64,000 nt of DNA from Candidatus Omnitrophota bacterium. Lineage in GTDB: Bacteria; Omnitrophota; Gorgyraeia; Gygaellales; JAQTUX01. Shown piece after piece: positions 1-21,685 of the stretch (positions are counted from its first letter, which is position 1; each line of letters opens with the position of its first letter). A program made the translations under genes and the position numbers. The notes beneath the pieces are model-generated. The model worked only from the letters and a program-made list of their open reading frames with translations. It ran no database searches and was not told where the DNA came from. The DNA lies in NCBI GenBank assembly GCA_028707125.1, contig JAQTUX010000002.1, positions 272,355-336,354 on the forward strand, read 5' to 3'.

Positions 1-174
1 TTTGATAACCGTCCTGAAAGACAGGGCTGCCAATATAATAAAAAGGACCCAAAGCAGGGCCGCTATCCCGGGATACCCTATAATATCTAATAAGAAATTC
101 ATAACCTGCCTCATAAAAGAGGCAGAGATAAAGATAAAAGAAGCAAAAATAAGCGTTATCTTAGACGGCTTCAT
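1..174 (-). CDS. hypothetical integral membrane protein, partial (C-terminus lies beyond window start)
   Basis: Minus-strand ATG at 172-174 overlaps the trxB stop in an ATGA arrangement. Hand translation gives MKPSKITLIFASFIFISASFMRQVMNFLLDIIGYPGIAALLWVLFIILAALSF..., hydrophobic and TM-like. Not in the ORF track because it is truncated by the window edge. Confidence 0.45.
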   Translation of the reverse strand, partial: MKPSKITLIFASFIFISASFMRQVMNFLLDIIGYPGIAALLWVLFIILAALSFRTVIK

Positions 175-1076
175 TTCTGCTGCGCCAGATACCTGAATAC
201 GCTCAACGCCGCCTTGGAGCCCTCGCCCGCGGCAATGATGATCTGTTTTTCCGGCACATCTGTAACGTCTCCGGCGGCGAATACAGCCGGGACATTAGTC
301 CTGTTATAGCAATCAACCTTTATTTCGCCTTTTTCGTTTTTATCTATGTCTTTGGCGAATTCGGAATTGGGTATAAGCCCTATTTCCACGAAAACACCCT
401 GCACGTCAATGGTTTTCTCGCCGCCATCGCTATGTACCTTGATCCCGCTTACCATCTTGTCCCCGAAAACAGCGCTGACCCTGCTATTATTAAGCAATGA
501 AACCTTTTTGTTCCGCTCAACCTTTTCACGCATTATGGCGTCTCCGTCTAACTGCGCGCCTATATTGACAAGATAAACGTGGTTGGCGATGTTCATCAGC
601 TGTAAAGCCGCGTCAAGGGCGGAATTGCCGCCGCCGATAACGGCTACGTCCTTTTTGTGAAACAGAGGCGCGTCGCAGGTAGCGCAATAAGTAAGCCCCT
701 TGTTCTTGAATTCCTTCTCTCCGGGCACATCAAGCTCTCTTGACCGCTTTCCGGAGGCGATTATTACAGTCCTTGCTTCGTATGTCCCTTTGCTGCTGCC
801 GACATATATGGAACCGCGCTCACTCTTGAGGCCGGTTATCTTCTCGCCCTCTTTCAATGTTATATTGAACTTGCGCATATGCTCTTCAAACTTTGCCGCA
901 AGTTCCGGCCCGGTAATAAATTGATACCCCGTATAATTCTCTATATCACCGCTTAAAGCGGCCTGGCCGCCCATGTCTTCGCTGACTACCAGAAGGTCCA
1001 TCCCTTTGCGCGCCGCGTATACGCTTGCCGTTATGCCCGCGGGTCCCGCGCCTATTATGATCAGATCATGTATCAT
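171..1076 (-). CDS. trxB: thioredoxin-disulfide reductase family flavoprotein (TrxR-like, copy 1)
   Basis: 301 aa. N-terminal FAD motif IIGAGPAG, redox-active CATCD motif and second NAD(P)H Rossmann VIGGGNSA. Translationally coupled (ATGA overlap) to the upstream glutaredoxin-like gene. Confidence 0.85.
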   Translation of the reverse strand: MIHDLIIIGAGPAGITASVYAARKGMDLLVVSEDMGGQAALSGDIENYTGYQFITGPELAAKFEEHMRKFNITLKEGEKITGLKSERGSIYVGSSKGTYEARTVIIASGKRSRELDVPGEKEFKNKGLTYCATCDAPLFHKKDVAVIGGGNSALDAALQLMNIANHVYLVNIGAQLDGDAIMREKVERNKKVSLLNNSRVSAVFGDKMVSGIKVHSDGGEKTIDVQGVFVEIGLIPNSEFAKDIDKNEKGEIKVDCYNRTNVPAVFAAGDVTDVPEKQIIIAAGEGSKAALSVFRYLAQQK

Positions 1077-1309
1077 AACCCTAATGCCCGGCTTATCCTT
1101 TCTTTATCAAACCCCACTATGATCTCGCCGTCTATATCCAATACCGGGACACCCATCTGTCCCGACTTGCTGACCATCTCCTCCGCCATCGCCTGGTCCC
1201 GCGATACATCAATATCCTCAAACTCAATGTTCCTGTCCTTGAGGAACTGTTTGGCGCGCGTGCAGTATGGGCACGTCGGCGTGCTATATATCATAACCTT
1301 GCTTGGCAT
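1073..1309 (-). CDS. glutaredoxin-like small redoxin (CPYC active site)
   Basis: 78 aa with a TCPYC motif and thioredoxin-fold pattern (…GVPVL…). Sits directly upstream of trxB with a 4-nt overlap. Confidence 0.8.
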   Translation of the reverse strand: MPSKVMIYSTPTCPYCTRAKQFLKDRNIEFEDIDVSRDQAMAEEMVSKSGQMGVPVLDIDGEIIVGFDKERISRALGL

Positions 1310-1319
1310 GATAAACCTC

Positions 1320-1787
1320 CTACAACTTCTTTCTTAATTCTGTCAATTTATTCAAATGCCCCCGCTCCTGCTTGATCAATCCATCAATTAAGCCCTGCTC
1401 CCTTTTTTCTACACCCGTCTTCATGCCTTCGTAGAAGACGATGGATTCTTTTTCAAGCCCTATGCCCATATCAACCGCCTCTTTGTCGGTTTTTATCTTT
1501 CCGGCGATCTCCGCGCCTTTGCCCCTTCGCGTAAACACATATTTTGCCGCTATCGCGTTCATATAGGCGAAATACTCCTGCGGATATGCCTCCCTGGGCT
1601 CGTATTGATGCGCCGCCCGCAGTATCTGCTCAAATGTCTTTATGTGTTTTTCTTCCGCCTCAGCGAGATACTTAAATATCCCCTTCGCCTCAGCGTCAGG
1701 CGACCGCTCAAACAATGTATTGTAGAAATCTCTCCCGTTCTCCTCTATCTGGATCCCCAGCTCCGCTATCTCTGCCGCGCTGAACAT
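1320..1787 (-). CDS. ferritin-like diiron protein (rubrerythrin family, no rubredoxin domain)
   Basis: Contains the E..E..H diiron helix motif YLAEAEEKH. The start is trimmed to the MFSAAEI Met at 1787, which is preceded by GAGGAGAGGA and lies just downstream of the stop (1799) of the next gene; the ORF-track N-terminal extension would overlap that gene. Confidence 0.65.
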   Translation of the reverse strand: MFSAAEIAELGIQIEENGRDFYNTLFERSPDAEAKGIFKYLAEAEEKHIKTFEQILRAAHQYEPREAYPQEYFAYMNAIAAKYVFTRRGKGAEIAGKIKTDKEAVDMGIGLEKESIVFYEGMKTGVEKREQGLIDGLIKQERGHLNKLTELRKKL

Positions 1788-1798
1788 TCCTCTCCTCT

Positions 1799-2269
1799 CT
1801 AGCCCTGCTGTTTTATATGATGGGGCGTAAGATTCACGATCTCCTTTACATCCATGACAATCATATATTCGGGAGTAGGCAAGGCGACTTCGGGATGCCT
1901 GGGATGTCCTTTTTGCCCGCTGATATTCTTCAACACCCTGTGCGTTATCCGTTGGGTGATCTTGGCCTCCCACTCCCTGATGATGTGGGGCTGGAGCCGG
2001 TCCTCTCTTATTACCTTAGCCACGCCCTTAAGGCAGAAGCCGGCGAACTTATGCTCATCCACAGCGGTAATAGACATACGCCTGTTATGCCTGAGGTTTT
2101 CGTATGTCCTCTCTTTGTACAGGTCCAGCAGATAAATACGGCCGCTGCCGTCTATCTTCACTATGCCCTTGCAGGAATTATGGGGCGTGCCGTCCCTGCC
2201 GACTGTAGAAACTATGACAAAATTCTGGCTTCGCAAAAAATGCGCTATGTTCTCGTTCAATCTTTTCAT
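1799..2269 (-). CDS. pyridoxamine 5'-phosphate oxidase-like FMN-binding protein
   Basis: 156 aa. The split-barrel PNPOx family pattern (…FVIVSTVGRDGTPH…) is recognised by eye from family knowledge. Confidence 0.55.
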   Translation of the reverse strand: MKRLNENIAHFLRSQNFVIVSTVGRDGTPHNSCKGIVKIDGSGRIYLLDLYKERTYENLRHNRRMSITAVDEHKFAGFCLKGVAKVIREDRLQPHIIREWEAKITQRITHRVLKNISGQKGHPRHPEVALPTPEYMIVMDVKEIVNLTPHHIKQQG

Positions 2270-2410
2270 GACAACACCTTTATGCTGATGACTGGCGGGC
2301 AGTTTTGCGTCTTGCCCAGGACATGATACTACAGCCCTCTTTACAATGTGTAACGGGCCTGATCATCCATCTGATAATCGCCATCATCTCAATCTCACCC
2401 CCCTTATAAT

Positions 2411-2575
2411 CTATCCCTGCACCTTCTCAAACAGGTCTTTGCCTACGCCGCACTCAGGGCAAACCCAATCGGCTGGCAGGTCTTCAAAGGCGGTCCCCGG
2501 GTTGACGCCGTTGGCCGGGTCTCCCGCCGCCGGATCGTATATATAACCGCATACGGTACAACGATACTTCTGCAT
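2411..2575 (-). CDS. rub: rubredoxin (54 aa)
   Basis: Hand translation of the minus strand gives [54 protein letters not shown], with the two CxxCG knuckles and the aromatic core typical of rubredoxin. It is under 60 aa, so it is absent from the ORF track. Confidence 0.85.
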
Positions 2576-2601
2576 GGCCTCTCCCTCCTATAATGCCGTT
2601 G

Positions 2602-2778
2602 CTATTTTTCCATTTCCCGGATCTTCTTCTCAAGCAACTCCTTGTGCCTATATTCTTCGTTGCTTAAAAAAACGCAGATATCCTTTATTACCGGGTGCTC
2701 GACTCCCAGCCGTTCATAAAACTCCATTGCCTCTATTTCCTTGGACAACGCCAATTCCAATGCCTCGCTCGGTACCAT
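2602..2778 (-). CDS. small ferritin-like/rubrerythrin-like half-domain protein (58 aa)
   Basis: Hand translation gives MVPSEALELALSKEIEAMEFYERLGVEHPVIKDICVFLSNEEYRHKELLEKKIREMEK, with E..E..Y…EE..H spacing like one helix pair of a diiron ferritin-like domain. Sits between the rubredoxin and the pterin dehydratase. Not in the ORF track. Confidence 0.45.
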   Translation of the reverse strand: MVPSEALELALSKEIEAMEFYERLGVEHPVIKDICVFLSNEEYRHKELLEKKIREMEK

Positions 2779-2796
2779 CGGCCCCTCCTCCCGGAT

Positions 2797-3141
2797 CTAA
2801 ATGACAGCGTCTATCTTAGCTGCCATGATAAAATCGTTCTCGGATAAACCCTTTACGGCATGGGTAGACAGGGTAATCCTGACTTTGTTATAGGAAATGA
2901 ATATATTGGGATGGTGCCCTTCGTTTTCCGCCAGTTCCGCGACCTTATTTACAAAACTCATTGACTCTTTGAAATCCTTGAATTTAAATTCCTTCTTTAT
3001 TTTTACCGCCTCTTCCAGCTCCCAGTCCTGCAGCGCGGACGCGTACCCCCTTGCCTGTTCTTCAGGCATAGCAAGGCCTCCTGCTTCACAGGGCCGGCAT
3101 TTCTTAACCCGCAACAACTCTGCTTCTCTATTATCTGTCAT
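2797..3141 (-). CDS. pterin-4a-carbinolamine dehydratase (PCD/DCoH family)
   Basis: Motif …EGHHPNIFISYNKVRITLSTHAV… matches the PCD signature [EDKH]-x(3)-H-[HN]-P-x(5,6)-[YW]-x(9)-H-x(8,9)-D. The start is set at MTDNREAE (3141); the ORF-track alternative is 3195. Confidence 0.7.
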   Translation of the reverse strand: MTDNREAELLRVKKCRPCEAGGLAMPEEQARGYASALQDWELEEAVKIKKEFKFKDFKESMSFVNKVAELAENEGHHPNIFISYNKVRITLSTHAVKGLSENDFIMAAKIDAVI

Positions 3142-3205
3142 AACTGTCTTCCGGATATTTACTATAAAATATAACGCTTCTTTTGTAAAGCGCAAAGTGC
3201 CGCGC

Positions 3206-4381
3206 TTAACCGCGGGTATATCCGGCTATCTTTCTGCCGAACTCAAAACACTCTGATAGCTGCCCGGGCGTGGGGACGTATCTTATCTCAATACTGTCCA
3301 GCACCTCTATGTTCATCTTTGTCAATTCTTCATTTATGGCCTTTACAGCCCCTTTTCCCCAGCCGTAGCTTCCGAAAGATGCGGCCTTTTTGTTTACCGG
3401 CCTTATCCCTTTAAGAAAGGTCATAAAGCCGCCGACCGTGGGATACATCCCCATATTTAAGACGGGTGAGCCGATGGCTATTATCCGGGACTCCATTATA
3501 TCCGCCATTATCTCGCTCCAGTCGCTGGAGCGCAGGTTAAACACCGTAACATCCACGCCCTCCTGCTCAATGCCCCGCGCGATCTCCTGCGCCATCTTAT
3601 CCGTGCTCTGCCACATCGTATCAAAGACGATCGTGACCTTTGGCTCCGCCTCTCCGCTGCTCCAGCGCTTGTAGGCGTCAATTATCTTTCCGGGGCCGCG
3701 CCAGATCAAGCCGTGGGCAGGGGCTATCATTTTCAAGTTGAGCTTCATCTTTTCCAGCTCTTTGAGTTTATCCTGCGCCAGATTGGAATACATGCTTACT
3801 ATTACCGCGAAGTACCTGGCCGCCTCGCGCATGACCACATCTCCTAATTCGTCGTCAAAACGCTGATGGGTCGCTATATGCTGGCCAAAGGCGTCGTTGG
3901 TGAACAACATCTCTTCTTCTTTTACATACGTAAACATATTGTCCGGCCAGTGAAGCATGGCGGCTTCAATAAACTCAAGCGTCCTTTTGCCCAGTTTTAA
4001 TGTATCGCCTGTCTTTACGGCCTCGGCATTCCAGTCAGTACCGAAGTGCGACAGCAGGCCGTCCTTGCCCGCCTTAGTGGCGATGATCTTCGCGTTTACG
4101 GCGTATTTTTTAAGTTCCGGCAGGCATCCGGCATGGTCGCGCTCTGAATGCTGGCAGATGATATAGTCGATCTTCGCCGGGTCAACGATCTCCCTTATCC
4201 TCTCCAGCATAATATGCTCAAAACCATTCTTCACCGCGTCCACAAGCGCGATCTTATCGTCTATAATAAGATAGGAGTTATACGTTGTGCCGCGCGGCGT
4301 AGTGTAGGAACCGCAAAAGCGCAGATTCCAGTCGATCGCTCCTACCCAATAAATATCTGGCGCTATCTTTACTGCCGGCAT
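3206..4381 (-). CDS. fprA: flavodiiron protein (FprA/ROO type; metallo-beta-lactamase-like diiron domain plus flavodoxin domain)
   Basis: 391 aa. The N-terminal MBL-like domain carries HSERDH (H-x-E-x-D-H diiron ligands) and the C-terminal part is a flavodoxin-like domain; size and order are typical of class A FDPs. Confidence 0.8.
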   Translation of the reverse strand: MPAVKIAPDIYWVGAIDWNLRFCGSYTTPRGTTYNSYLIIDDKIALVDAVKNGFEHIMLERIREIVDPAKIDYIICQHSERDHAGCLPELKKYAVNAKIIATKAGKDGLLSHFGTDWNAEAVKTGDTLKLGKRTLEFIEAAMLHWPDNMFTYVKEEEMLFTNDAFGQHIATHQRFDDELGDVVMREAARYFAVIVSMYSNLAQDKLKELEKMKLNLKMIAPAHGLIWRGPGKIIDAYKRWSSGEAEPKVTIVFDTMWQSTDKMAQEIARGIEQEGVDVTVFNLRSSDWSEIMADIMESRIIAIGSPVLNMGMYPTVGGFMTFLKGIRPVNKKAASFGSYGWGKGAVKAINEELTKMNIEVLDSIEIRYVPTPGQLSECFEFGRKIAGYTRG

Positions 4382-4392
4382 ACCCTGTCCTC

Positions 4393-5241
4393 CTATATAT
4401 TCTTTTCCAGTAATTGCCTGATCTTGGATCCTCTATCTACTTGCGCGCCGTAATCCCGAAACGGCTCTTCAAATGTCGCGGCTTCCTTCTTATAAAATGT
4501 CCCCAGGGCGATCGGCGCCTCTTTGTTATAATCCCACTCCCTTATTTTTTGCAGGGCGCCGTCATAGTTACGCGGGTCATGGTCTTTTAGTTCATACGCG
4601 TGCCTGGTATAATACTGATACATATTGTAGAAGGTAACGCATACCTGCAATACGTCTACCAGGGAAAATCCCTTGTGCGCCAACGCCTCCTTAAAAATAC
4701 CCTTAAGAAGCTCTATGCCGTGGGAATAACCCCTGGCAAGGAAGGTGGCGCCGCTTGAAAGCATAAGTTCGAGGGGATTTATGGGCAACTCCCTGGTGCC
4801 GAACGGCGTGGAGCGGCCCCTGAAACCCAACGGCGAAGTAGGTGTATATTGGCCGGTTGTAAGCCCGTATACCCGGTTGTTGTGTATGATCATTGTTATG
4901 TCTATATTGCGTTTAGCGGCAAATATGAGATGCTCCAAGCCCTCCCCGTAAGCGTCTCCGTCTCCGGCGAAGCCGATTACCTTTAAATCAGGGTTCGCCA
5001 GCTTTATGCCGATGGCTACCGGCACAACCCTGCCGTGTATGGAATAAAAACTGTTGACGTTGATATAATCAACTATCTTAGCGTGGCATCCTATGCCGGA
5101 AACCAGGACAACCTTCTCCAGAGGGAAACCCTCATTCCTCAACTCATCAAGTATGGCCTTGACAGCATTAAGGATGGCGAAGTTTCCGCAGCCCGGACAC
5201 CAGGTATTTACGGCGTAAGTGCCTAAGTCATTCTGGCTCAT
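4393..5241 (-). CDS. korB: 2-oxoacid:ferredoxin oxidoreductase, beta subunit (TPP-binding)
   Basis: 282 aa. The N-terminal Cys cluster (CPGCG…, Fe-S ligands) and the GDG…N TPP-binding fold are typical of OFOR beta subunits. Overlaps the alpha-subunit gene by 4 nt. Confidence 0.8.
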   Translation of the reverse strand: MSQNDLGTYAVNTWCPGCGNFAILNAVKAILDELRNEGFPLEKVVLVSGIGCHAKIVDYINVNSFYSIHGRVVPVAIGIKLANPDLKVIGFAGDGDAYGEGLEHLIFAAKRNIDITMIIHNNRVYGLTTGQYTPTSPLGFRGRSTPFGTRELPINPLELMLSSGATFLARGYSHGIELLKGIFKEALAHKGFSLVDVLQVCVTFYNMYQYYTRHAYELKDHDPRNYDGALQKIREWDYNKEAPIALGTFYKKEAATFEEPFRDYGAQVDRGSKIRQLLEKNI

Positions 5242-6890
5242 CTCATCGCCTCGCCTAATCTGGATTCTAACTCATCCAAAGAAAACGGCCTTCCATCGTA
5301 TTTCAGTATCATTTTGTCAACCTTCAGGCCGCGCGCTGACATAAGGCCCGCGAGCATTCCTGTGGCGTTATTTTCCACGCAGATTACCTTTTTGGCGCCT
5401 TTGAGCGCTTCACTGAACTGCTTTAAGGGGAACGGTGAAAGCACAAGCGGCTGTATCACCTTAAGCCCCAACTTTTCCGCTGCCTCAACGCATACACCTT
5501 TATTAGAGCCCCAGCAGACAACCGCGCATTCAGCAGAAGGATTACCGTACGCCTTTACCGCTCTATATTTCTCCAAATCCTGCGCCAGGTATTTCTCCTT
5601 GCGCAGGCGCTTATCGTAAGAAGAGGTGATCGTCGCGGGATCTTCAGTGGTTATACCGTAGTCATCGTGCTCATAACTGCTGGCCTTTATAACCGCGCCT
5701 TTACGCGGGACAAATGCCAGGGGAGAAACCCCTGTTTCCGTATTCAGGTATCTTTTATAATCACCGTCTTTATCCCATAAGAGCGGCGGTTCCTCTTTTA
5801 CGCTGTCTACGGCGGATGCCTCAAAGCTGAATGTTGCCTCGTTTAATGTCTTATCGGTCAGGACAAAACACGGTATCTGGTATTTCCAGGCGATGTTTAA
5901 CGCGACCGCTGACCAGTAACAGGCCTCTTCCGCGTCTCCGGGGGCTGTTACAAGCCTCACAAACTCTCCGTGACCGGCGTTTAGAACAAAATTCAGGTCT
6001 GCCTGCGCCGTATATGTGGGGACCCCTGTGGAAGGGCCTGGCCGCTGCCCCATGACAATAACTACGGGCAGCTCTGCCATACCCGCCAAACTCAACCCTT
6101 CATTCATCAGGCAGAAGCCGCCGCCTGAAGTGCCTACGGCGGCCTTCTCTCCGCAATAGGCGAAACCCAGCGCCATTAATATCACGGAAATCTCGCTTTC
6201 CGGATGAACCACCTTTAAGGAAAACTCCTTTGAAAGCCCGGCGAGAAAATGCAGGACGCCGGAAGAAGGTGTCATAGGATAGGCAATGTATGACTTAAGC
6301 CCTGCCTTAATAAGGCCTAAACCGATCGCTTCATTACCTGTAAATAGAGAAAAAGGCGCCTGAGATATCGCCGGCAGGGCAAGCGACTCTTCTGTTTCGT
6401 TGTAACCCCGCAAGGCGATCTTGATATTCAAATCGGCCTCTCTGGGAATATGTTTCTTAAATACCTCCTCCAGAATATCCTGTTTTATTCCCGCCGCCCT
6501 GCAAAAGGCGCCTATAATGCAGGAGTTGCGCATTATCGCGGAGCCGCCTTCTTCCTTGATCATCTTTTCTAAAGGCAGGCCGCTGCCTTTTGACTTAACC
6601 GTATCCGAATCATAGACTATCAGTGAGTTATCTTTAAGGCGGTGTTTGTGAAGGTCCACCGTATCCTGATTTAAGGCGAGTAGAACGTCTATCTTATCAC
6701 GATGAACAGCGATCTTTTTCTCAGACGCCCGGATAATAGCAAAGTTATGCCCCCCTCTTATAAGTGAGGGATAGTCCAGGTATACATATATACGCCAACC
6801 CAGGCGGTTGAGCAGATGCGCGATAAGGGAGGCGGCCTGGTTTATGCCCTCCCCTGCCTTTCCGCCGATAAGAACCGAGAAATCAGCCAT
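5238..6890 (-). CDS. korA: 2-oxoacid:ferredoxin oxidoreductase, fused gamma-alpha subunit
   Basis: 550 aa. N-terminal gamma-type domain (MADFSVLIGGKAGEGI…) followed by an OFOR alpha domain (…AYPMTPSS…); a two-subunit, 2-oxoglutarate/2-oxoisovalerate-type OFOR. Confidence 0.8.
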   Translation of the reverse strand: MADFSVLIGGKAGEGINQAASLIAHLLNRLGWRIYVYLDYPSLIRGGHNFAIIRASEKKIAVHRDKIDVLLALNQDTVDLHKHRLKDNSLIVYDSDTVKSKGSGLPLEKMIKEEGGSAIMRNSCIIGAFCRAAGIKQDILEEVFKKHIPREADLNIKIALRGYNETEESLALPAISQAPFSLFTGNEAIGLGLIKAGLKSYIAYPMTPSSGVLHFLAGLSKEFSLKVVHPESEISVILMALGFAYCGEKAAVGTSGGGFCLMNEGLSLAGMAELPVVIVMGQRPGPSTGVPTYTAQADLNFVLNAGHGEFVRLVTAPGDAEEACYWSAVALNIAWKYQIPCFVLTDKTLNEATFSFEASAVDSVKEEPPLLWDKDGDYKRYLNTETGVSPLAFVPRKGAVIKASSYEHDDYGITTEDPATITSSYDKRLRKEKYLAQDLEKYRAVKAYGNPSAECAVVCWGSNKGVCVEAAEKLGLKVIQPLVLSPFPLKQFSEALKGAKKVICVENNATGMLAGLMSARGLKVDKMILKYDGRPFSLDELESRLGEAMR

Positions 6891-7495
6891 TATTTTAGAT
6901 TGTCTGCGACCTTACCTACCATCTCTTTACCGGGTGTAAGTGTTTTCTCTCCCGGCTGCCATCTCGCGGGGCATACCTGCGCGGGATTCTCCCTGACATG
7001 CTTGAACGCCCTGAGCTTTCTTAATAATTCATCGGAATTCCTGCCTACCGGAAAATAATTCACCTCTGAGGCAACGAGTTTTCTATCGGGATCAACAATA
7101 AATGTGCCCCGCAATGCCAGTCCGGTTGACTCGTCGTAGACCCCGAAGGTCTTGGAGACAATATGAGTGGGGTCTGCCCCCATGGGGTACCTTATACCGG
7201 CCAGCAGCGCCTCAGATCTCTGCCAGGCGTAATGCACAAAATGAGTGTCGGTGCTCAGGGAAATCAACTCCGCGCCTTCTTTCCTGAGTTCTTCGTATTT
7301 TTCCGCCACATCAGCAAGTTCGGTGGGGCAGACAAACGTATAATCGGCAGGATAAAAGAAAAGTATCAACCAGTTGCCCCTCTTGGAGATGTCCGTGAAT
7401 TTGATCTTAGCGAAATCCTTCTTCTCGGTCAGGTAAACATCTATCTCGAACTCAGGGATCTTATCGCCTATCTTTAATATATTGATCTCTTCCAT
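6890..7495 (-). CDS. peroxiredoxin (AhpC/TSA family thiol peroxidase)
   Basis: Peroxidatic motif FYPADYTFVCPTEL. The start is trimmed to MEEINILK at 7495, preceded by GGAAGGAGG. Confidence 0.85.
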   Translation of the reverse strand: MEEINILKIGDKIPEFEIDVYLTEKKDFAKIKFTDISKRGNWLILFFYPADYTFVCPTELADVAEKYEELRKEGAELISLSTDTHFVHYAWQRSEALLAGIRYPMGADPTHIVSKTFGVYDESTGLALRGTFIVDPDRKLVASEVNYFPVGRNSDELLRKLRAFKHVRENPAQVCPARWQPGEKTLTPGKEMVGKVADNLK

Positions 7496-7548
7496 AAAGG
7501 GCCTCCTTCCCAACACTTTTATATCACCGAATCAGGAAAATGACAATA

Positions 7549-9219
7549 TTATTTTCCCTGCAGCGCCGCATCCAGGTCCTGCTCCGCGGTTGAGATCGGC
7601 TTGATACCAAACTTTTCTACCAGTACCTTAAGCACATTCGGCGAAACAAACGCCGGCAGCGAAGGGCCTAATCGTATGTTCTTGATGCCCAGGGCAAGAA
7701 GCGTGAGAAGAATGCACACCGCCTTCTGCTCATACCAAGATAAGACCAGCGACAAGGGAAGCTCGTTAACTCCGCATTTGAACGCCCCTGCCAGGGCAAG
7801 CGCTATCTGGATGGCGGAATACGAATCATTGCACTGGCCGCAGTCAAGAAGCCGCGGTATGCCGCCGATGTCCCCGAACTCCAGCTTGTTAAACCTGTAT
7901 TTACCGCAGGCAAGCGTAAGTATTACCGTGTCCCCGGGCGCCTTCTCGGCAAATTCAGTATAATAGTTCCTGCCTGACTTTGCCCCGTCGCAGCCGCCGA
8001 TAAGGAAGAAACGCCTTATCTTGCCTGCCTTGACCGCATCTATCACTTTATCGGCAACGCTAAGAACTGCGTTACGGGCAAATCCCACCAGTATCTCCTT
8101 ATCTTCCCTGTCATCCTTAAAGCCGCCGGCCTCAAGCGCCTTGTCAATGACCGCGCCGAAATCCTTTTTTCCGCCTTTGCCTTCTATATGCTTGACACCC
8201 GGCCAGGCAACCAGGCCCGTGGTAAATATCCTGTCCCTATAAGAATCCCCGGGCCTCTGGATACAGTTGGTGGTCATAAGGATACTGCCGGGGAAATCAT
8301 TAAACTCCCTTATCTGGTCCTGCCAGGCGCCTCCGTAGTTGCCCGCCAGATGCTTATATTTCTTCAATCCGGGATAGCCGTGCGCGGGCAGCATCTCTCC
8401 GTGGGTATATATGTTTATGCCTTTGCCCTCTGTTTGCTTCAACAACTCCTCCAGATCAAGCAGGTCATGTCCTGAAACCAGGATCGCCGGCCCCTTCCTC
8501 ACGCCCAGTGAGACCTTGGTGGGTTCGGGATGGCCGAAACGTTCAACGTGCGCGCCGTCAAGCAACTCCAGGCACTTCAGGTTCACCCTGCCGAAATCCA
8601 TGATCATGCCCAGTAGATCATCCGCTTTCAGGCCATCCCTCGTAATAAAGGACAGCGCCTTATAGAAGAAAGAGATTATTTCCTCATCCTTCTTACCTAA
8701 TATATAGACGTGGTCCGCGTAAGCAGCCATGCCTTTGAGGCCGTAAACAAGGATCTCTTTTAAGCTTCTTATGTCTTCATCAAGCGAGGGGTCGGACATT
8801 ATGCCTACTTCCTTACCCTGATCTATGAGCCCTTCCAGCGTATCAGCCGGCTCCCAATCGGTCTCCGCGGCAAGCTTACCCCTGAATTCCGCGCCGTGCT
8901 TATCTTTATAGGCCTTAAGAAACAGGCGCCTATTCTTCTCCTTCAGCTCGTACGCGCTCAATAAAAGCCCGCGTAATCTTTCCGGGTCAAAATCCACGTT
9001 GGTAACCGTGCTGAACAGGCCTTCAATTATAAAAATGTCGGTAGCCTCATCTCTTACGCCCAGCTCTCTGGCGGCATTCCCATAGACCGATATGCCTTTT
9101 AAAGCGTATATAAGCAGGTCCTGGAGCGCTGCCGTCTCCGGTTTCTTCCCGCATACGCCCGATACCGTACAACCCTTGCCGCCTGCCGCCTGTTCACACT
9201 GATAGCAGAACATACTCAT
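7549..9219 (-). CDS. hcp: hybrid cluster protein / hydroxylamine reductase
   Basis: 556 aa with N-terminal MSMFCYQCEQAAGGKGCT, the hallmark Cys motif of Hcp (prismane protein). Confidence 0.9.
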   Translation of the reverse strand: MSMFCYQCEQAAGGKGCTVSGVCGKKPETAALQDLLIYALKGISVYGNAARELGVRDEATDIFIIEGLFSTVTNVDFDPERLRGLLLSAYELKEKNRRLFLKAYKDKHGAEFRGKLAAETDWEPADTLEGLIDQGKEVGIMSDPSLDEDIRSLKEILVYGLKGMAAYADHVYILGKKDEEIISFFYKALSFITRDGLKADDLLGMIMDFGRVNLKCLELLDGAHVERFGHPEPTKVSLGVRKGPAILVSGHDLLDLEELLKQTEGKGINIYTHGEMLPAHGYPGLKKYKHLAGNYGGAWQDQIREFNDFPGSILMTTNCIQRPGDSYRDRIFTTGLVAWPGVKHIEGKGGKKDFGAVIDKALEAGGFKDDREDKEILVGFARNAVLSVADKVIDAVKAGKIRRFFLIGGCDGAKSGRNYYTEFAEKAPGDTVILTLACGKYRFNKLEFGDIGGIPRLLDCGQCNDSYSAIQIALALAGAFKCGVNELPLSLVLSWYEQKAVCILLTLLALGIKNIRLGPSLPAFVSPNVLKVLVEKFGIKPISTAEQDLDAALQGK

Positions 9220-9953
9220 CGCCTTCCTCCTTGTAGATATATTTCCTCAGCTAATTTTTTGCCTGTGGCCGTAAGAAATATCTTGTTGATCATCTCTCTC
9301 AGTTTATCACTATCCCCTGTCTTGACCTCATCCTTAAGGTTGACCAGCCAGTCGGCATCGTACAATACCCTGAAATTATCCGTGTTAACCTTTCCGGGTG
9401 AATGATGATTGGCTATTATGAGGCATATTTCATCTATGTCCTTTTTCTCCAGCCCCATACGCCTTAAGGTCTCCTTCGCGATCGCTGGGCCCTCCCTTTC
9501 CTGATAATGGCCTGCCGATGAGCCGTATTTTTGCTCTGCCGCCTCTATCCCCACATCATGCAGCAACGCGGCAGGTATCACTATATGCCAGTCCGCCTGC
9601 TCCTTCCTTAGTATCTCCTCGGCATAGTCCATAACCTTGCGCGCGTGCCTTATCCTCTTCTTATCCTGCCCAAAATAATTCTCTAAGGCCTTTATTATTT
9701 TATCTTTAAGCATTATGGATTTGTTTTCCAGATACCTGGCATAAAGCTTATCCCCAACGCATTCCCTGGCATACTTGCACCAGTCAAGGCAGCCGGCTGT
9801 ATCCCCCTGACGCATAACCTCCTTCTTGCAGGACGGGCAGATCGCCCTGGCCTCATCGCTCCATATCTCCATCTCCTGTTTGCAATAAGGGCAGTTTATA
9901 ATTTCCGGCACCGGCTGTTTGAACCTGCCCGCGCCCGGGCATTCCAGCATCAT
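9216..9953 (-). CDS. HD-domain phosphohydrolase with N-terminal zinc-ribbon (4 Cys)
   Basis: Two CxxC pairs at the N-terminus (CPYCK…CPSCK), then an …AALLHDVG… HD motif and a downstream His/Asp. Overlaps hcp by 4 nt. Confidence 0.6.
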   Translation of the reverse strand: MMLECPGAGRFKQPVPEIINCPYCKQEMEIWSDEARAICPSCKKEVMRQGDTAGCLDWCKYARECVGDKLYARYLENKSIMLKDKIIKALENYFGQDKKRIRHARKVMDYAEEILRKEQADWHIVIPAALLHDVGIEAAEQKYGSSAGHYQEREGPAIAKETLRRMGLEKKDIDEICLIIANHHSPGKVNTDNFRVLYDADWLVNLKDEVKTGDSDKLREMINKIFLTATGKKLAEEIYLQGGRR

Positions 9954-10780
9954 TTTAATCTCTCTCCCTGAATGCTTATAATCGCTTCCTTAAAAGGCAC
10001 CTTCTTCCCGGAATCGGAAATCACCGATTGGATAACGCTTACCAGCCCGAAACAACAGGGCACCTCCATATGGGCGTATGTTATGGATTTTATCTCGTTG
10101 TTTTGCAGGATCTGGGCAAATTTTTCCTTGTAGGACTCTACATCGTCTAATTTAGGGCAGCCCACCAGCACAACTTTGCCCTTCAACAATTCGTTATGAA
10201 AATCGGCGTAGGCAAACGGCACGCAATCCGCCGCTATCAGCAAGTCCGCTCCCCGCAGATACGGCGCGAAGGGAGGGACCAGGGTGATCTGTATCGGCCA
10301 CTGCCTGAGCTGCGGCTCCATATGCCCGGCCGTGGCTGGCGAGGCGGTTTCATTCCGCTCTTTCCTGAAATCCATTAGTTTTGAGCCGGGGCAGCCGGAA
10401 CGCGCGGCATGCGAGGGCTTACTTAAATCAGGCACCTTTATATTATTCTTCTTAAGATAATCCACTGCCTGGTTAAAATATACCGTCTGATCATGCTCCT
10501 TAAGATGTAAAAGGTGCGCATTGATAACATTCCCGCCCTGTTTTGCCACATTTGCCATAACCTTGTATTCATCATATTCCTCTGCCTCCCTTTCCTCTAT
10601 TGTTATCGCCCCTTGAGGGCAGTGGCCGATACAGGCACCCAGCCCATCGCAGAACAGGTCGCTTATGAGGCGCGCCTTTCCGTCTATGATCTGCATCGCC
10701 CCCTCCGGGCAGTTGGGGACACACAGGCCGCAGCCGTTACATTTTCCTTCATCGATCTTTATGATCTTTCTCCTGGGCAT
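9950..10780 (-). CDS. 4Fe-4S dicluster ferredoxin-domain protein (Hcp-associated)
   Basis: The N-terminus carries two CxxCxxCxxxCP motifs (CNGCGLCVPNCP, CDGLGACIGHCP); a Cys-rich C-terminal domain (VGCPKLDD…PCCFG) follows. Overlaps the HD gene by 4 nt. Confidence 0.65.
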   Translation of the reverse strand: MPRRKIIKIDEGKCNGCGLCVPNCPEGAMQIIDGKARLISDLFCDGLGACIGHCPQGAITIEEREAEEYDEYKVMANVAKQGGNVINAHLLHLKEHDQTVYFNQAVDYLKKNNIKVPDLSKPSHAARSGCPGSKLMDFRKERNETASPATAGHMEPQLRQWPIQITLVPPFAPYLRGADLLIAADCVPFAYADFHNELLKGKVVLVGCPKLDDVESYKEKFAQILQNNEIKSITYAHMEVPCCFGLVSVIQSVISDSGKKVPFKEAIISIQGERLK

Positions 10781-11192
10781 CTCTACGCCCTCCTTCTTTT
10801 ACCAAAGAAGCTATGGTTATGGATCTTAATTCAGATGCCACATACCTGCCGATAGCGTCGATTTTCTTTTTTAAAACACATTCTTTGGTATTAGGACAAA
10901 TGTGCTTTTTCAGGGTGCATTCGTTTAACTTGAACGGGCCCTGGAATATATTTATCAGGTCGGTAATAAATATCCTCTGAGGCCTGACCGCGAGCCTGAA
11001 TCCGCCTGCCTGCCCCCTGATAGATATAAGCAGTCCCTCCCTATTCAGTATCTGAAGTATCTTCCTTAAAAAAGGCCGCGGTATCTTAAGGCGGCTGACA
11101 AGGTCGCTTGCAGGGATTAATGCCCCTTTCCTGCCCGCTATGAACACAAGCGCCCTGACCGCGTAATCCGTATTCCTGGTGATCAGCTTCAC
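10749..11192 (-). CDS. Rrf2-family transcriptional regulator with three-Cys cluster motif (NsrR/IscR-like)
   Basis: 147 aa. N-terminal wHTH (…TDYAVRALVFIA…) and C…C….C spacing (NECTLKKHICPNTKEC) as in Fe-S-containing Rrf2 regulators. It is the first gene of the co-directional array. Confidence 0.8.
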   Translation of the reverse strand: MKLITRNTDYAVRALVFIAGRKGALIPASDLVSRLKIPRPFLRKILQILNREGLLISIRGQAGGFRLAVRPQRIFITDLINIFQGPFKLNECTLKKHICPNTKECVLKKKIDAIGRYVASELRSITIASLVKEGGRRDAQEKDHKDR

Positions 11193-11216
11193 TCCCTTCT
11201 CCTTTCAGTTCTTGAT

Positions 11217-11241
11217 AAATGATACCATAATAGTATCATTT
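11217..11241. promoter_or_regulatory. perfect inverted repeat AAATGATAC-N7-GTATCATTT, candidate Rrf2 operator
   Basis: Seen directly: 9-bp arms around a 7-bp spacer, about 25 bp upstream of the Rrf2 start codon. An AT-rich dyad of this geometry is what Rrf2 regulators typically bind. Confidence 0.5.
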
Positions 11242-11294
11242 GTCAAGAAAAAAATAATTTTATTTAACCGGCAACGCCTGTCTGGGATCACGCG

Positions 11295-12338
11295 TCAACT
11301 ATGTTTCTTCAAACGAATGCTGTTAAGCATCAACATGATCAGAAGCCAGGAAGCGCATACCTTGATATAGCGCGGCATAACCTCTCCCGCCCCACCCAGC
11401 GCGCTCTTCACATCAATCCCCGAGGCCAGATAGATCTGATTAAGCAATAACCCCAATACTATTGAACAAACCGCGATAGACGCCAGATATATCGCTACGG
11501 ACCTCATTCCCAGGAACCTGCCGGTGGTAATTATGCCGGCGATATTGGTTGCCGGTCCGGCTAAAAGGAATACCAGCGCCGCTCCCGGGCTCATGCCTTT
11601 TGCGATCAAGGCGGCGGCTATAGGGGTTGAGGCTGAAGCGCAGATATAGAGAGGGATGCCTATTATCAACATTATGAACATCGCCTGCCAGTTATAACCG
11701 AGATACCCCTCAATTAATCTCTGCGGGACAAAATACGCTATGATGCCGGCCATTATTATGCCGAAGGCAAGCCATACCGCGATATCCGCCAGCAGGTCTA
11801 CAAACGCGTAACGCATACCGTATTTAAATTTCTCGATTAAATTGTGGGTATGCGCCTCTTCCTCTTCGCAGAAAACGCAGGAACCCGGCCTGATTGATGA
11901 ATGCGCCCCGTCTTTTCTGCCGAAGATATTCTCCGTGATGCCGGCGATAATAGCCGTGATAAAGGCGGCCGCCGGCCGGAACACGGTCATTATGGGGTCC
12001 AGTAACGCGTAAGACAGGGCGATCGAGTCCACGCTTGATTCAGGCGTTGAGATCAAGAAAGAAAGCACCGCGCCTCTGGACGCGCCGTTCTTTCGTAAAG
12101 ATACGGCTGTGGGGATCACGCCGCAAGAACATAAAGGCAGGGGAATGCCGCAGACAGCCGAAAGCAGGACTGATTTTATCCCCCGGCCGCCCAGATGCCT
12201 GGCGATCTTGTCTTTATTTATGAACATCTGGATCACGCCGGAAATAAAAATACCGAAAAGAAGGTAGGGGGCGGCCTCTTCCATAGTATGCCAGATCTCC
12301 CCAATCAAGCTTTCTATAACGTAACCGATATCCGCCAT
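11295..12338 (-). CDS. permease, COG0701/DUF318 family (two-repeat membrane permease with Cys-rich loop)
   Basis: 347 aa, polytopic, with the …CGIPLPLCSCGVIP… motif characteristic of the YraQ/ArsP-like permease family. Confidence 0.6.
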   Translation of the reverse strand: MADIGYVIESLIGEIWHTMEEAAPYLLFGIFISGVIQMFINKDKIARHLGGRGIKSVLLSAVCGIPLPLCSCGVIPTAVSLRKNGASRGAVLSFLISTPESSVDSIALSYALLDPIMTVFRPAAAFITAIIAGITENIFGRKDGAHSSIRPGSCVFCEEEEAHTHNLIEKFKYGMRYAFVDLLADIAVWLAFGIIMAGIIAYFVPQRLIEGYLGYNWQAMFIMLIIGIPLYICASASTPIAAALIAKGMSPGAALVFLLAGPATNIAGIITTGRFLGMRSVAIYLASIAVCSIVLGLLLNQIYLASGIDVKSALGGAGEVMPRYIKVCASWLLIMLMLNSIRLKKHS

Positions 12339-12348
12339 TCTTAATGTA

Positions 12349-13092
12349 TTAATGATTATGGAAAAAGAATTTCATTACCCACATAATAAGCAGCCCGAAG
12401 AGAAAAAACGCCACGGAAAGGTTCGCCCGCTTGAAAGGGCCGTGCTTACGCAGCTCGGGTATGAGGTCGCAGGTGGAGATATACAAAAATCCTCCGGCCG
12501 CGAACGGCAGTATGAATAGAGAGAACTGCCCTGCCTGACGGGAGAAATAATAGCCGATCAACGCCCCAAGCACAGCCCCCAGGGCGCAGATAAAATTAAA
12601 AGCAAGCGCCTTGAAACGATGGAATCCGCCGTAAACCAGGACTCCGAAGTCGCCTATCTCCTGCGGTATCTCGTGAAAGATGACCGCGACCGTGGTAACG
12701 ATGCCGAAATGGATCCCCGCGTTAAAGCTGGCGCCGATCATTATCCCGTCTATAAGATTGTGTATGCCGTCGCCGATGAGGTTAAGATAAGTAAAGATAT
12801 GCACATCACATACGCCGTTGTGGCAATGGTGCCAGTAAAGGTATTTCTCCAGGACAAAAAACGCGGAAAACCCCAGAATACAGGAGCCAAAAACTAAAGG
12901 AACGCTGAGATGCTCAAATGCCTCCGGCAATAAATGAAACAACGCTCCCCCGATAAGCGCCCCTGCCGACAGGGCGATCAATAGGATGAGGGCCCTGTTC
13001 AGGATCTTCTCATTAAGCATCAGGCTGAATACGCCTACCAGAGAAACCAGGCTTACCACTAAAGTAGCGCCTATCGCCCAAACCAGATTCAT
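12349..13092 (-). CDS. ZIP-family divalent metal transporter (ZupT-like)
   Basis: 247 aa with the …HEIPQEIGDFGVL… and …HNLIDG… motifs of the ZIP family. Confidence 0.8.
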   Translation of the reverse strand: MNLVWAIGATLVVSLVSLVGVFSLMLNEKILNRALILLIALSAGALIGGALFHLLPEAFEHLSVPLVFGSCILGFSAFFVLEKYLYWHHCHNGVCDVHIFTYLNLIGDGIHNLIDGIMIGASFNAGIHFGIVTTVAVIFHEIPQEIGDFGVLVYGGFHRFKALAFNFICALGAVLGALIGYYFSRQAGQFSLFILPFAAGGFLYISTCDLIPELRKHGPFKRANLSVAFFLFGLLIMWVMKFFFHNH

Positions 13093-13179
13093 TATACCGC
13101 CTTATTATAAATCCCAGCCTCAACTGCCTTCTGAAGCTGGGATCTATACATCTTGCTTAAAATCGGGACTACAACCTTC

Positions 13180-13350
13180 TTATTTCTTAAGGTCCTTTAC
13201 CTTGTCTTTGCTGACCACCCTCCAACATTCATGGGGGCCGTTGGGTGATTTGGCAACGGCGAAACACCTGCCGCCCTTCTCTCTGATCTGATATTCGGTG
13301 GTCTTGAATTTATTTTTCGTCTTTACATCAAAGAATTCAATTTCCTGCAT
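13180..13350 (-). CDS. hypothetical small protein (56 aa)
   Basis: Hand translation gives MQEIEFFDVKTKNKFKTTEYQIREKGGRCFAVAKSPNGPHECWRVVSKDKVKDLKK. A hairpin followed by a U-rich run lies at 13110-13145. Under 60 aa, so not in the ORF track. No family recognised. Confidence 0.35.
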   Translation of the reverse strand: MQEIEFFDVKTKNKFKTTEYQIREKGGRCFAVAKSPNGPHECWRVVSKDKVKDLKK

Positions 13351-13375
13351 CTCTTCCTCCTTTAAGTTGCCGGCG

Positions 13376-13810
13376 CTATTTGTAATAGTCCAATCCCCTC
13401 TTTATAAAACGTTCGTCCATCCGCCTGGGTTCAAAAAACCTTCTGACGAACTGCCTTGCCTTTTGGATATCAAATTCCTTGCAGCAATAGATATCTATAC
13501 TGATGAAGTTTTTGGGGCTCAGGGTATGAATTACTATTGAGCTTTCAATAAGCGGGACCCAGCCCGAAAGGCCGGCCTTATCGGGGAACCTTACCCCGTC
13601 GCTCCTGAATATGTCCGGCGGGGCCTGCTTTTCCATTCCTAAATAACCTACGATCTCATCAAGGAACTGATAGCAGGTATGCAGGTCATCGCATACGCCG
13701 GGCTTGCAGTCATAAAGGTCAAGCAGCAGTTGATACCCGAAAACAGCCTTGATCTTTGGCTTCAGGTTTATCGCTGCTTCCTGCAGAGCTGCTGCGCTTT
13801 CTCTTGCCAT
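13376..13810 (-). CDS. speH: S-adenosylmethionine decarboxylase proenzyme (pyruvoyl-dependent, SpeH/class 1b)
   Basis: 144 aa. Contains the …LLLDLYDC… motif and the ESS self-cleavage site (…LIESSIVIHT…). Confidence 0.75.
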   Translation of the reverse strand: MARESAAALQEAAINLKPKIKAVFGYQLLLDLYDCKPGVCDDLHTCYQFLDEIVGYLGMEKQAPPDIFRSDGVRFPDKAGLSGWVPLIESSIVIHTLSPKNFISIDIYCCKEFDIQKARQFVRRFFEPRRMDERFIKRGLDYYK

Positions 13811-13882
13811 GTTTTTTATAATAAGTCCCTTCCTCTATCTGTGGTATATAATAAAACTAAGAAATAAAATAGTCAAGAAAAA

Positions 13883-14254
13883 TTATTGGGGCGAACCCGC
13901 CGCCCCGGCTTCCTTACGCGACCAATCCGACAGGAGGCCGTCTTTGTCAAAATAAACATAGATCTTCCCGGTATTGAAAAACTCCAGCGGATACCTGTAA
14001 AGCAGCCTCAGGCCGCCTTCATGCCGGCCCTCCAGGACCGGCTCGCCGTAAATATTTATGAACCTCTCCCGCGGCATGCCTCTTGCGATCTTTCCGTTTT
14101 TGATGTCGGAGGCAAGCAGATCAAACTTGGCTTCCTGCCTGCCGACCTGCCGTTGCATACTGCCCTGGCTTTCTCCCAGCGCCTTAAGCGTCATCAGCGG
14201 CCGGCCGCAGCCTGAGAGCATAATACAGAAACCAACATATAGAACTCTAATCAT
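13883..14254 (-). CDS. hypothetical lipoprotein
   Basis: Signal peptide with lipobox (…MLSGCGR…); no recognisable domain. Confidence 0.4.
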   Translation of the reverse strand: MIRVLYVGFCIMLSGCGRPLMTLKALGESQGSMQRQVGRQEAKFDLLASDIKNGKIARGMPRERFINIYGEPVLEGRHEGGLRLLYRYPLEFFNTGKIYVYFDKDGLLSDWSRKEAGAAGSPQ

Positions 14255-15690: not shown

Positions 15691-15691
15691 T

Positions 15692-15988: not shown

Positions 15989-16005
15989 ATCAACCTCCCT
16001 TTCTT

Positions 16006-17034: not shown

Positions 17035-17077
17035 CCCATCTTTTAGCCGGAAACGAACAGGATGTGTCCCTTTTTTT
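17026..17077 (-). promoter_or_regulatory. 11-bp perfect GC-rich hairpin (GGGACACATCC / GGATGTGTCCC) that pairs the amrS start codon, followed by a T-run
   Basis: Seen directly. The arm at 17026-17036 contains the complement of ATG-TGT-CCC (amrS codons 1-3). The pairing arm is at 17060-17070 and TTTTTTT follows on the plus strand (17071-17077). The 23-nt loop carries a weak SD. Confidence 0.6.
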
Positions 17078-17753: not shown

Positions 17754-17807
17754 ACGCACCTCCTTTTTGCTAACTCTATCACTCCTGAAAAGGCGTGTCA
17801 AGGGTTT

Positions 17808-18584: not shown

Positions 18585-18618
18585 ATAAACCTTGACGCTT
18601 TAGCACCTTGATACTTGA

Positions 18619-20940: not shown

Positions 20941-20944
20941 ACGG

Positions 20945-21682: not shown

Positions 21683-21685
21683 TTA

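Follow-up and report, generated by a model that had tools for sequence, protein, structure and literature searches.

A predicted Rrf2 regulon for oxidative and nitrosative stress in Candidatus Omnitrophota and other anaerobic candidate phyla

NsrR is an Rrf2-family [4Fe-4S] repressor that senses NO and controls hmp, hcp-hcr and ytfE, and its consensus operator is gATGyAT-N5-ATrCATc (Rodionov et al. 2005, PMC1274295). The locus described here shares much with the NsrR regulons. It lies at the beginning of a 64-kb window, the whole stretch of DNA that was analysed (64,000 nucleotides of contig JAQTUX010000002.1 from a Candidatus Omnitrophota bacterium), where the open reading frame (ORF) list, Pfam and NCBIfam together give an array of 17 minus-strand genes, including a micro-gene, headed by the gene for an Rrf2-family regulator. 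With moderate confidence we read the array as one case of a conserved Rrf2 regulon of Ca. Omnitrophota and some other anaerobic candidate phyla, in which an NsrR-like repressor would release one long stress operon. The likeness to NsrR regulons, as judged from the sequence, consists of an Rrf2 winged helix, 3 Cys plus an N-terminal Asp, a palindrome of about 23 bp overlapping the promoter, and the predicted logic of a repressor; Hcp and hemerythrin/RIC-type proteins are also among the predicted targets. A length of 23 bp is that of the NsrR and IscR type-1 sites. Unlike the NsrR regulons, these arrays have no flavohaemoglobin that we noted, they are long and autoregulated, they belong to uncultivated phyla, and they are dominated by enzymes with which strict anaerobes handle O2 and reactive oxygen species (ROS), namely flavodiiron protein (FDP), rubredoxin (Rd), superoxide reductase (SOR), rubrerythrin (Rbr) and peroxiredoxin (Prx).

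Other described systems resemble parts of the array. In gut Clostridia, the Rrf2 protein UniRef50_C0FN14 adjoins the FDP/butyryl-CoA:O2 oxidoreductase (BOOR) system and a rubrerythrin (bioRxiv 2026, PMC13404960). That proposal is also a computational one, in which an Fe-S Rrf2 protein, there with 3 Cys and Asp8, derepresses FDP-based O2 detoxification in anaerobes; compared by description, it defines no operator and its partners are BCR-FDP and RNR, whereas for the family in the window the promoter-operator is defined and the array is much bigger. HcpR is a CRP/FNR-type protein and the predicted activator of hcp-frdX in Desulfovibrio, clostridia and others (PMC1274295), which likewise joins Hcp to a ferredoxin-like protein under a regulator dedicated to nitrosative stress, of the CRP/FNR type there and of the Rrf2 type here. 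The rubredoxin operon of Clostridium pasteurianum is reported to encode Cp34/Cp9/Cp20 (Reynolds, Meyer and Poole 2002, PMID 11827546). The window has the corresponding set, a thioredoxin reductase (TrxR) like the C-terminal half of AhpF, a glutaredoxin (Grx) of the YruB/Cp9 family and an AhpC-type Prx, together with rubredoxin, and differs in that its Prx is nine genes away from Grx and TrxR and in having an Rrf2 regulator. The PerR clusters of Clostridium and Desulfovibrio, and the rbo-rub and rbr-fprA-hrb clusters of Moorella thermoacetica, hold FDP, Rd, SOR, Rbr and Prx and are derepressed by oxidative stress. They share the clustered enzyme repertoire with our array, but their PerR is Fur-like rather than Rrf2, and they are smaller or dispersed and are not known to have Hcp or a 2-oxoacid:ferredoxin oxidoreductase (OFOR) in the same unit.

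In the literature searched, neither this Rrf2 subfamily with its operator and leaderless promoters, nor the micro-protein, nor the arrays of Omnitrophota are described; the nearest match is the proposal for gut Clostridia. The enzymes are known, and so are Rrf2 Fe-S repressors of nitrosative-stress genes; what is new is this regulon in uncultivated phyla, which we put forward as a solid and testable prediction. Omnitrophota are widespread and uncultivated, and their endurance of O2 and NO at redox interfaces gains a candidate master regulator, as it does in several other candidate phyla. Its promoter-operator is specified to the base and its ligand set is given as well, which makes the hypothesis directly testable. 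A controller of Rrf2 type would join PerR, OxyR, sigma-B, MsvR and HcpR among the oxidative-stress regulators of anaerobes.

From the regulator downstream, the array runs through a two-domain Fe-S protein, a Cys-rich/HD fusion, Hcp, Prx, the 2 OFOR subunits, FDP, a protein like pterin carbinolamine dehydratase (PCD), a half-ferritin, rubredoxin, the micro-gene, a PNPOx-like protein, an Rbr-like protein, a Grx-like protein, a TrxR-like protein and a VanZ-like membrane protein. The initial annotation had described 16 co-directional genes within 171-11241. The families that it named, their order and their shared minus strand are all borne out by the ORF list, Pfam and NCBIfam, and each part is indeed a protein known from anaerobes for redox work or for defence against O2, NO or H2O2. 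Fifteen of the listed genes are inside that interval, while the sixteenth, VanZ, is outside it. Its list was also one gene short, the conserved micro-gene at 2280-2387 having been overlooked, and its gaps of 0-70 nt do not hold for that list, by which 141 nt separate Rd from PNPOx.

The Rrf2-family regulator (10749..11192, minus strand, 147 aa) has a GTG start with a Shine-Dalgarno sequence. PF02082 covers residues 4-133 with E = 1.8e-29, and with 102.2 bits the protein passes the 73.3-bit cut-off of the superfamily model TIGR00738. That it is an Fe-S-type Rrf2 had been claimed and is upheld by the ligands, the NsrR-type set Asp9, Cys92, Cys99 and Cys105 being present here and invariant in 30 to 77 orthologues. 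A profile of the family aligns over the full length with S. coelicolor NsrR (PDB ID: 5N07, E = 2.4e-11), placing the 4 residues on D8/C93/C99/C105, which are the [4Fe-4S] ligands of that protein. The single-sequence match to NsrR in PDB has E = 8e-4, and the best solved structure, at E = 3e-10, is distant. Membership of IscR was rejected, TIGR02010 scoring 57.2 bits against 207.55 and no His being conserved after C105, where IscR uses Cys3 plus His107; the protein also scores below the NCBIfam equivalog cut-offs for RirA, the SUF regulator, CymR and HypR.

A sigma-70-type promoter lies 25 nt upstream of rrf2 (11219..11246, minus strand), consisting of TTGACA (11246-11241), a 16-nt spacer, and TATCAT with a TG extension (11224-11219), and at 11/12 it is the best match in 14.5 kb. 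Covering its spacer and -10 box is the predicted Rrf2 operator, the 23-bp palindrome AATGATAC-N7-GTATCATT at 11218..11240, which in the window extends to 20-nt arms (11209-11249, 41 bp) and is unique in the 64 kb even at 3 mismatches. Scanning genomes with the Rrf2 protein yielded 80 loci at 50-67% identity, mostly from Ca. Omnitrophota metagenome-assembled genomes (MAGs), with some labelled Planctomycetota, Clostridia, Atribacterota, Auribacterota or Aminicenantes. The palindrome is found at ≤2 mismatches upstream of rrf2 in 79 of the 80, usually as the sole site in 20 kb. At 76 of the 80 loci cTTGACA abuts the palindrome and TATCAT is the -10 box, the palindrome thereby taking up spacer and -10 box just as in the window. 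The rrf2 start codon follows the motif by only 4-8 nt in 23 loci (e.g., L009, L013, L039), as expected if leaderless rrf2 mRNAs start from exactly this promoter. In the window, by contrast, rrf2 is preceded by a leader of 25 nt that contains a Shine-Dalgarno sequence.

Metagenome contigs were scanned motif-first, with the promoter-operator pattern only and no protein information, giving at least 120 loci; among the matches listed, about 95 of 114 informative loci begin with rrf2 or with the micro-ORF followed by rrf2, with one site each, a recovery of rrf2 in about 85%. These and the 80 genome loci are the approximately 200 related loci cited below by L numbers. A few of them have extra operators, which precede NifS-IscU (L073 and L064), NadA-NifS-IscU, MsrA-MsrB, a YHS-domain protein, Prx, ferritin-SOR-Rbr, hemerythrin or Hcp, and these predicted targets form a coherent oxidative and Fe-S-damage regulon. 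The conserved palindrome overlaps the only strong promoter, which heads the array, both here and in about 200 related loci, and the Rrf2 protein is very probably the regulator of the array, as had been proposed. Its binding to this DNA and the nature of its signal we infer from the ligands, the operator position and the content of the regulon. An independent assembly of the window sequence, Logan contig SRR22315508_144682 (L202/L001), begins within the 41-bp palindrome, 53 nt upstream of rrf2, and the break in the assembly at this point may be due to the inverted repeat.

The initial annotation had suggested a comparison of synteny with related genomes. By tBLASTn with the window proteins and by clustering of array ORFs, the same families are found downstream of orthologous rrf2 genes in dozens of genomes, each relative carrying its own subset on the rrf2 strand. 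Shared with the window are the Fer4-AF_0155 protein, the Cys-rich domain (stand-alone or fused to HD), Hcp, Rd, FDP, half-ferritin, PNPOx-like, Rbr-like, Grx, TrxR-like, PCD and Prx. Confined to the relatives are superoxide reductase, hemerythrin, ferritin, classical Rbr, NifU-C, DJ-1, VIT1, fusions of the thiol peroxidase Tpx with PCD, and the Fe-S enzymes NadA and IlvD. Immediately upstream of FDP, relatives also have either an FNR-like NAD-binding reductase or a fusion of flavin reductase with Rd, and neither is in the window. Consolidation into one array had been thought unusual. In this lineage it is typical rather than peculiar to one genome, since unbroken arrays of 12-16 genes behind the same operator are common in relatives (L079, L081, L125, L144, L173, L193).

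Two side observations concern these arrays. In one subgroup (L009, L013, L025, L029, L034, L038, L041, L043), a PtsI-like phosphoenolpyruvate-utilising enzyme of about 560 aa is encoded directly after rrf2 and ahead of hcp, followed by genes for a radical S-adenosylmethionine (SAM) protein, NadA and IlvD. In other loci, a second and distant Rrf2 paralogue (27-30% identity) directly follows the TrxR-like gene (L008 15411-15803, L032, L050 15268-15678, L056 5868-6242). The further block that this paralogue heads, with a NifU-C-like gene among its members, may be an Fe-S assembly unit under a regulator of its own.

Gene identities, ligand conservation, the conserved position of the promoter-operator and synteny are the observations on which we build the following model; the co-transcription of 17 genes and the electron routes in it are predictions. 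The Rrf2 protein probably holds a [4Fe-4S] cluster by Cys92, Cys99, Cys105 and Asp9, and its dimer would bind the 23-bp palindrome, blocking RNA polymerase at the promoter of its own gene. Damage to the cluster by O2, ROS or NO would make the repressor leave the DNA, and transcription from the single promoter would then run through rrf2 and the packed downstream genes. The Fe-S protein, the Cys-rich/HD protein and Hcp would serve in the detoxification of NO and hydroxylamine, and the AhpC-type Prx would be reduced by the distal pair of YruB-Grx and TrxR-like protein. The two-subunit OFOR, FDP and rubredoxin would reduce O2 and NO, possibly fed directly by the oxidation of 2-oxoacids, and the diiron proteins, the PNPOx-like flavoprotein and the micro-protein would complete the unit.

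Several observations, set out here and in the next paragraph, weigh against this model of one operon under an NsrR-like repressor. A single strand with short or overlapping junctions is what a single operon is expected to have, and the array has it, its 16 junctions running from -32 to +64 nt with a median of 10 and 7 overlaps when the micro-ORF is counted; unrelated neighbours have the same, so this feature discriminates poorly. By a crude gene call about 60 of the 62 window genes are on the minus strand, the 47 junctions outside the array have a median of 7 nt with 36/47 at ≤70 nt, and an unrelated 18-gene same-strand run at 14398-31735, with gaps ≤75 nt, mixes pgi, radical SAM, MscS, metallo-beta-lactamase (MBL) hydrolase, prepilin peptidase, aroE, leuA, ilvCNBD, fba and pfk. 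Because tight packing is the genome-wide norm it is no evidence of an operon, and the "gap-free" arrangement, earlier taken as a sign of one, loses that meaning; the caution applies to method, in that with an extreme strand bias a gap-free array does not by itself argue for an operon. It might then be asked if the clustering is only a by-product of same-strand compaction with no common regulation at all, an equally tight unrelated run being at hand, but this we find scarcely credible, as it is contradicted by the recurrence of these families downstream of one and the same operator in about 200 loci, drawn from many genomes as well as metagenomes; behind orthologous Rrf2 genes in dozens of genomes, functional clustering is far beyond chance. 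A stronger contender, which we still hold to be on the unlikely side, divides the array into several transcription units, with Rrf2 controlling itself and a proximal module (Fe-S protein, Cys-rich/HD, Hcp, perhaps Prx-OFOR-FDP) and the genes from PCD to TrxR being expressed from internal promoters, constitutively or under other control. Besides the uninformative packing, it can call on the 64-nt FDP-to-PCD gap, where a promoter-like site matches 10 of 12 (TTTACA-17-TATAGT, 3189-3161), one of the sites inside the array that, at 9-10 of 12, are weaker than the head promoter with its 11 of 12. It can also call on the many relatives in which, by rough ORF calls, FDP/SOR/Grx/TrxR come after gaps >120 nt with no second operator: ferredoxin-type Fe-S protein (31/32), Hcp (27/34) and CysRich (15/15) stand before the first such gap, as a tight Rrf2-Fd-CysRich/HD-Hcp module, and FDP (8/22), SOR (9/23), Grx/TrxR (3/13) and PNPOx (2/12) are mostly past it. 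Set against this, the arrays of the window and of L079, L081, L144, L173 and L193 contain no gap larger than about 75-105 nt, and stress genes lacking an operator of their own would otherwise be unregulated. The 81 internal gaps of relatives are enriched only in A/T-rich low-complexity 8-mers and share no motif, and a relaxed operator scan of the relatives finds essentially one site per locus with no second operator in internal gaps. Terminator-like matches are at the chance level (17 versus 15.2 expected) with no convincing internal terminator; when the gaps are folded, none of the internal ones exceeds its shuffled versions in structure, the operator palindrome alone standing out with z = -3.4, and an Rfam scan of 1-14000 at E ≤0.1 has no match. 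On the main reading, one transcript would cover all 17 genes.

The kinship to NsrR has its own difficulties. The operator AATGATAC-N7-GTATCATT differs in sequence and in half-site spacing from gATGyAT-N5-ATrCATc, membership of NsrR proper was rejected with 59.8 bits on NF008240 against a cut-off of 182, and the signal could be Fe-S or iron status instead of O2/NO. Taken further, the last point makes the regulator a sensor of Fe-S or iron supply like IscR, RirA or SufR, and the array a regulon for Fe-S homeostasis and iron sparing. The best sub-threshold NCBIfam matches of the Rrf2 protein are indeed to the SUF regulator and RirA, operators precede NifS-IscU in 2 of the loci given above, and ferritin, VIT1, NifU-C, ZIP, NadA and IlvD recur in the arrays; yet the core and most frequent members are the detoxification enzymes Hcp, FDP, SOR, Rd, Prx and Rbr, and the ligands are Cys3 plus Asp as in NsrR, not the Cys3 plus His of IscR, which leaves this reading improbable. 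The 2 kinds of sensing also overlap, O2 and NO acting via destruction of the Fe-S cluster. The OFOR in the middle had been named as part of what makes the array unusual. Such embedding recurs in L011, L015, L048, L067, L176 and L177. Rather than a source of electrons, OFOR is quite possibly a stress-induced spare for a housekeeping 2-oxoacid oxidoreductase damaged by oxygen, a role that would go with the other oxidant-labile Fe-S enzymes (NadA, IlvD, the radical SAM protein) in arrays of relatives and with the presence of OFOR in only about 7 of 200 loci. Pulling the other way are the 11 nt between OFOR beta and FDP in the window, the adjacency of OFOR to Rd, Hrb or FDP in L011, L048, L176 and L177, and the want of any NAD(P)H:rubredoxin reductase, FNR-like protein or Hrb in the window array, where relatives have one directly upstream of FDP. 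A precedent on the same side is the reduction of rubredoxin by pyruvate:ferredoxin oxidoreductase (PFOR) in Chlorobium tepidum, as reported by Yoon et al. (1999, PMID 10514453).

On electron supply, 2 branches can be told apart. The array has the class-A FDP and the rubredoxin of the NAD(P)H:rubredoxin oxidoreductase (NROR)-Rd-FDP chain, and its OFOR takes the position that FNR-like or Hrb reductases have in relatives. This position, the missing NAD(P)H:rubredoxin reductase and the PFOR precedent make plausible a route from 2-oxoacid via OFOR and Rd or the Fe-S protein to FDP and Hcp. To go beyond that is speculative, and we regard as rather doubtful the combined proposal of a self-contained O2/NO-reducing chain independent of pyridine nucleotides (OFOR to Fe-S protein and/or Rd, and on to FDP plus Hcp) with the head module as a new sensing and electron-delivery unit. 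If true, the chain would parallel the recently described butyryl-CoA:O2 oxidoreductase, and the invariant head module, made of the micro-protein, Rrf2, the Fer4-AF_0155 protein and the Cys-rich domain, would be such a unit of uncultivated anaerobic phyla. For the other branch, the array had been called low-potential, and this is not supported, since the TrxR-like protein is closest to the C-terminal half of AhpF, the Grx belongs to the YruB/Cp9 family and the Prx is AhpC-like. The TrxR-like protein scores best against AhpF (PDB ID: 1FL2, 229 bits), with NAD(P)H TrxRs at approximately 195-209 bits; its top NCBIfam match is the AhpF model, although it stays below the equivalog cut-offs of both AhpF and TrxR. 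Its translation lacks the HRR motif that NADPH-TrxR typically has. Ferredoxin-dependent TrxR (FFTR) was tried and rejected, 6GNA/6GNC/6GND giving only 115-120 bits. By these similarities, the TrxR-like branch is probably driven by pyridine nucleotide rather than by a low-potential donor.

The overlooked micro-gene (2280..2387, minus strand) is unannotated, fills the 141-nt space between Rd and PNPOx, has a good Shine-Dalgarno sequence and encodes 35 aa, MMAIIRWMIRPVTHCKEGCSIMSWARRKTARQSSA. We find 69 homologues in the 200 related loci, always on the array strand and usually with 25-27 aa (e.g., L030 9794-9931, L081 1471-1548, L002 12795-12872), with the consensus MDIT[IV][KR]YMLRPVAHCKEGCS..S[RW]ARR, in which an HCKEGC motif is followed by a basic tail. 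It mostly occupies the first place after the operator, ahead of rrf2, and in 4 genome loci it directly follows hcp. Across 66 distinct nucleotide versions the entropy by codon position is 0.39/0.24/1.22, and a Shine-Dalgarno-like element precedes 68 of the 69 copies; codon variation of the coding type and these ribosome-binding sites are evidence for a translated gene. The micro-protein has no Pfam or NCBIfam family, and exact look-up of 10 variants in a collection of 15 billion proteins found 0 of them. At 25-27 aa, such genes fall below the 90-nt minimum of common gene callers. The analysis has in this way brought to light an unannotated micro-protein family.

The first three genes after rrf2 overlap one another. 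The two-domain Fe-S protein (9950..10780, minus strand as for all array genes, 276 aa) has an N-terminal 2x[4Fe-4S] Fer4 domain and a C-terminal AF_0155 domain (PF27217) with invariant Cys. Its gene overlaps rrf2 by 32 nt and is the commonest one right after rrf2 in relatives, and NCBI names an identical protein as from a Candidatus Omnitrophica MAG. The Cys-rich/HD fusion (9216..9953, 245 aa, HD PF01966) has ATGA overlaps at both ends. Its N-terminus is a zinc-ribbon-like domain of about 80 aa with 8 Cys and no significant family match, and in at least 15 relatives this domain stands alone (76-86 aa) between the Fe-S protein and Hcp, for instance at L081 2572-2802. Hcp (7549..9219, 556 aa) matches PF03063 with E = 7.8e-174 and NF003658 with 837.7 bits against a cut-off of 367, and the N-terminal motif CX2CX8CX5C, read from the translation, indicates a class I type.

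Further downstream is the AhpC-type 2-Cys Prx (6890..7495, 201 aa from ATG), which has AhpC-TSA and 1-cysPrx_C domains with FVCPTE and VCPA motifs; it scores 209 bits on the AhpC model, below the cut-off of 272, and about 200 bits on PrxU, also below cut-off. OFOR is the two-subunit KorAB type, both subunits being above cut-offs and no delta subunit being present. The gamma-alpha fusion (5238..6890, 550 aa) has POR and POR_N domains and scores 546.9 versus 482.75 bits on TIGR03710, and the beta subunit (4393..5241, 282 aa), which binds thiamine pyrophosphate (TPP) and a [4Fe-4S] cluster according to its TPP_enzyme_C and PFO_beta_C domains, scores 285.2 versus 261.9 on TIGR02177. The class-A FDP (3206..4381, 391 aa), which starts 11 nt past OFOR beta, combines ODP/Lactamase_B with Flavodoxin_1 and has 412 bits on NF008887, below the cut-off.

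The largest true gap of the array, 64 nt, precedes the PCD-like protein (2797..3141, 114 aa, PF01329), for which alignment of residues 10-113 to the model supports the ATG at 3141. In relatives the PCD domain is fused to a Tpx-type thiol peroxidase in a 283-aa protein (L060 14139-14990, L030 13642-14493, and others), and these fusions suggest a peroxide-related rather than a pterin-recycling role for the stand-alone PCD of the window. With the Tpx-PCD fusions, the Cys-rich/HD fusion and OFOR in the place where relatives carry NAD(P)H-type reductases, the arrays offer leads for enzymology. The 58-aa half-ferritin (2602..2778), with 2 helices and E...ExxH, has a weak match to Rubrerythrin (E = 3.9e-4) and is kept directly after FDP in L010, L021, L030 and L059; it is followed by rubredoxin (2411..2575, 54 aa, PF00301, E = 6.6e-26).

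The PNPOx-like protein (1799..2269, 156 aa, PF01243) is an FMN-binding split-barrel protein, and FDP-PNPOx-Grx-TrxR is a conserved block in relatives. The Rbr-like diiron four-helix protein (1320..1787, 155 aa, PF02915) is without a rubredoxin domain, its best solved relative being TM1526 (PDB ID: 1VJX). The YruB/Cp9-family Grx-like protein (1073..1309, 78 aa) has a CPYC motif and scores 100.4 versus 88.55 bits on TIGR02196, and the low-Mr TrxR-like flavoprotein (171..1076, 301 aa) has a CATC motif.

Last in the array is the 5' part of the VanZ-like membrane protein gene (1..174), which starts at 174 (ATGA overlap) or at 101 and is cut by the window edge. The identical 19.7-kb Logan contig L001 has the whole gene, with 165 aa, and there a 97-nt gap, a promoter-like site and lipopolysaccharide (LPS)-heptose genes come after it. 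The gene was not found in the related arrays and is for that reason probably a passenger. On the other side of the operator, upstream of it and on the minus strand, Pfam identifies an ArsP_1-family permease (11295-12338) and a ZIP metal transporter (12349-13092). No operator is ahead of these 2 genes in the window, and the ArsP_1 and ZIP families sit inside the Rrf2 arrays of other genomes (L004, L047, L195 and others). Elsewhere in the window, plus-strand genes occur only at 43977-46029, and the GC skew is negative except at 44-46 kb. A second TrxR-family flavoprotein (20008-20940, minus strand, 310 aa, Pyr_redox_2) is encoded among unrelated genes and may be the housekeeping thioredoxin reductase.

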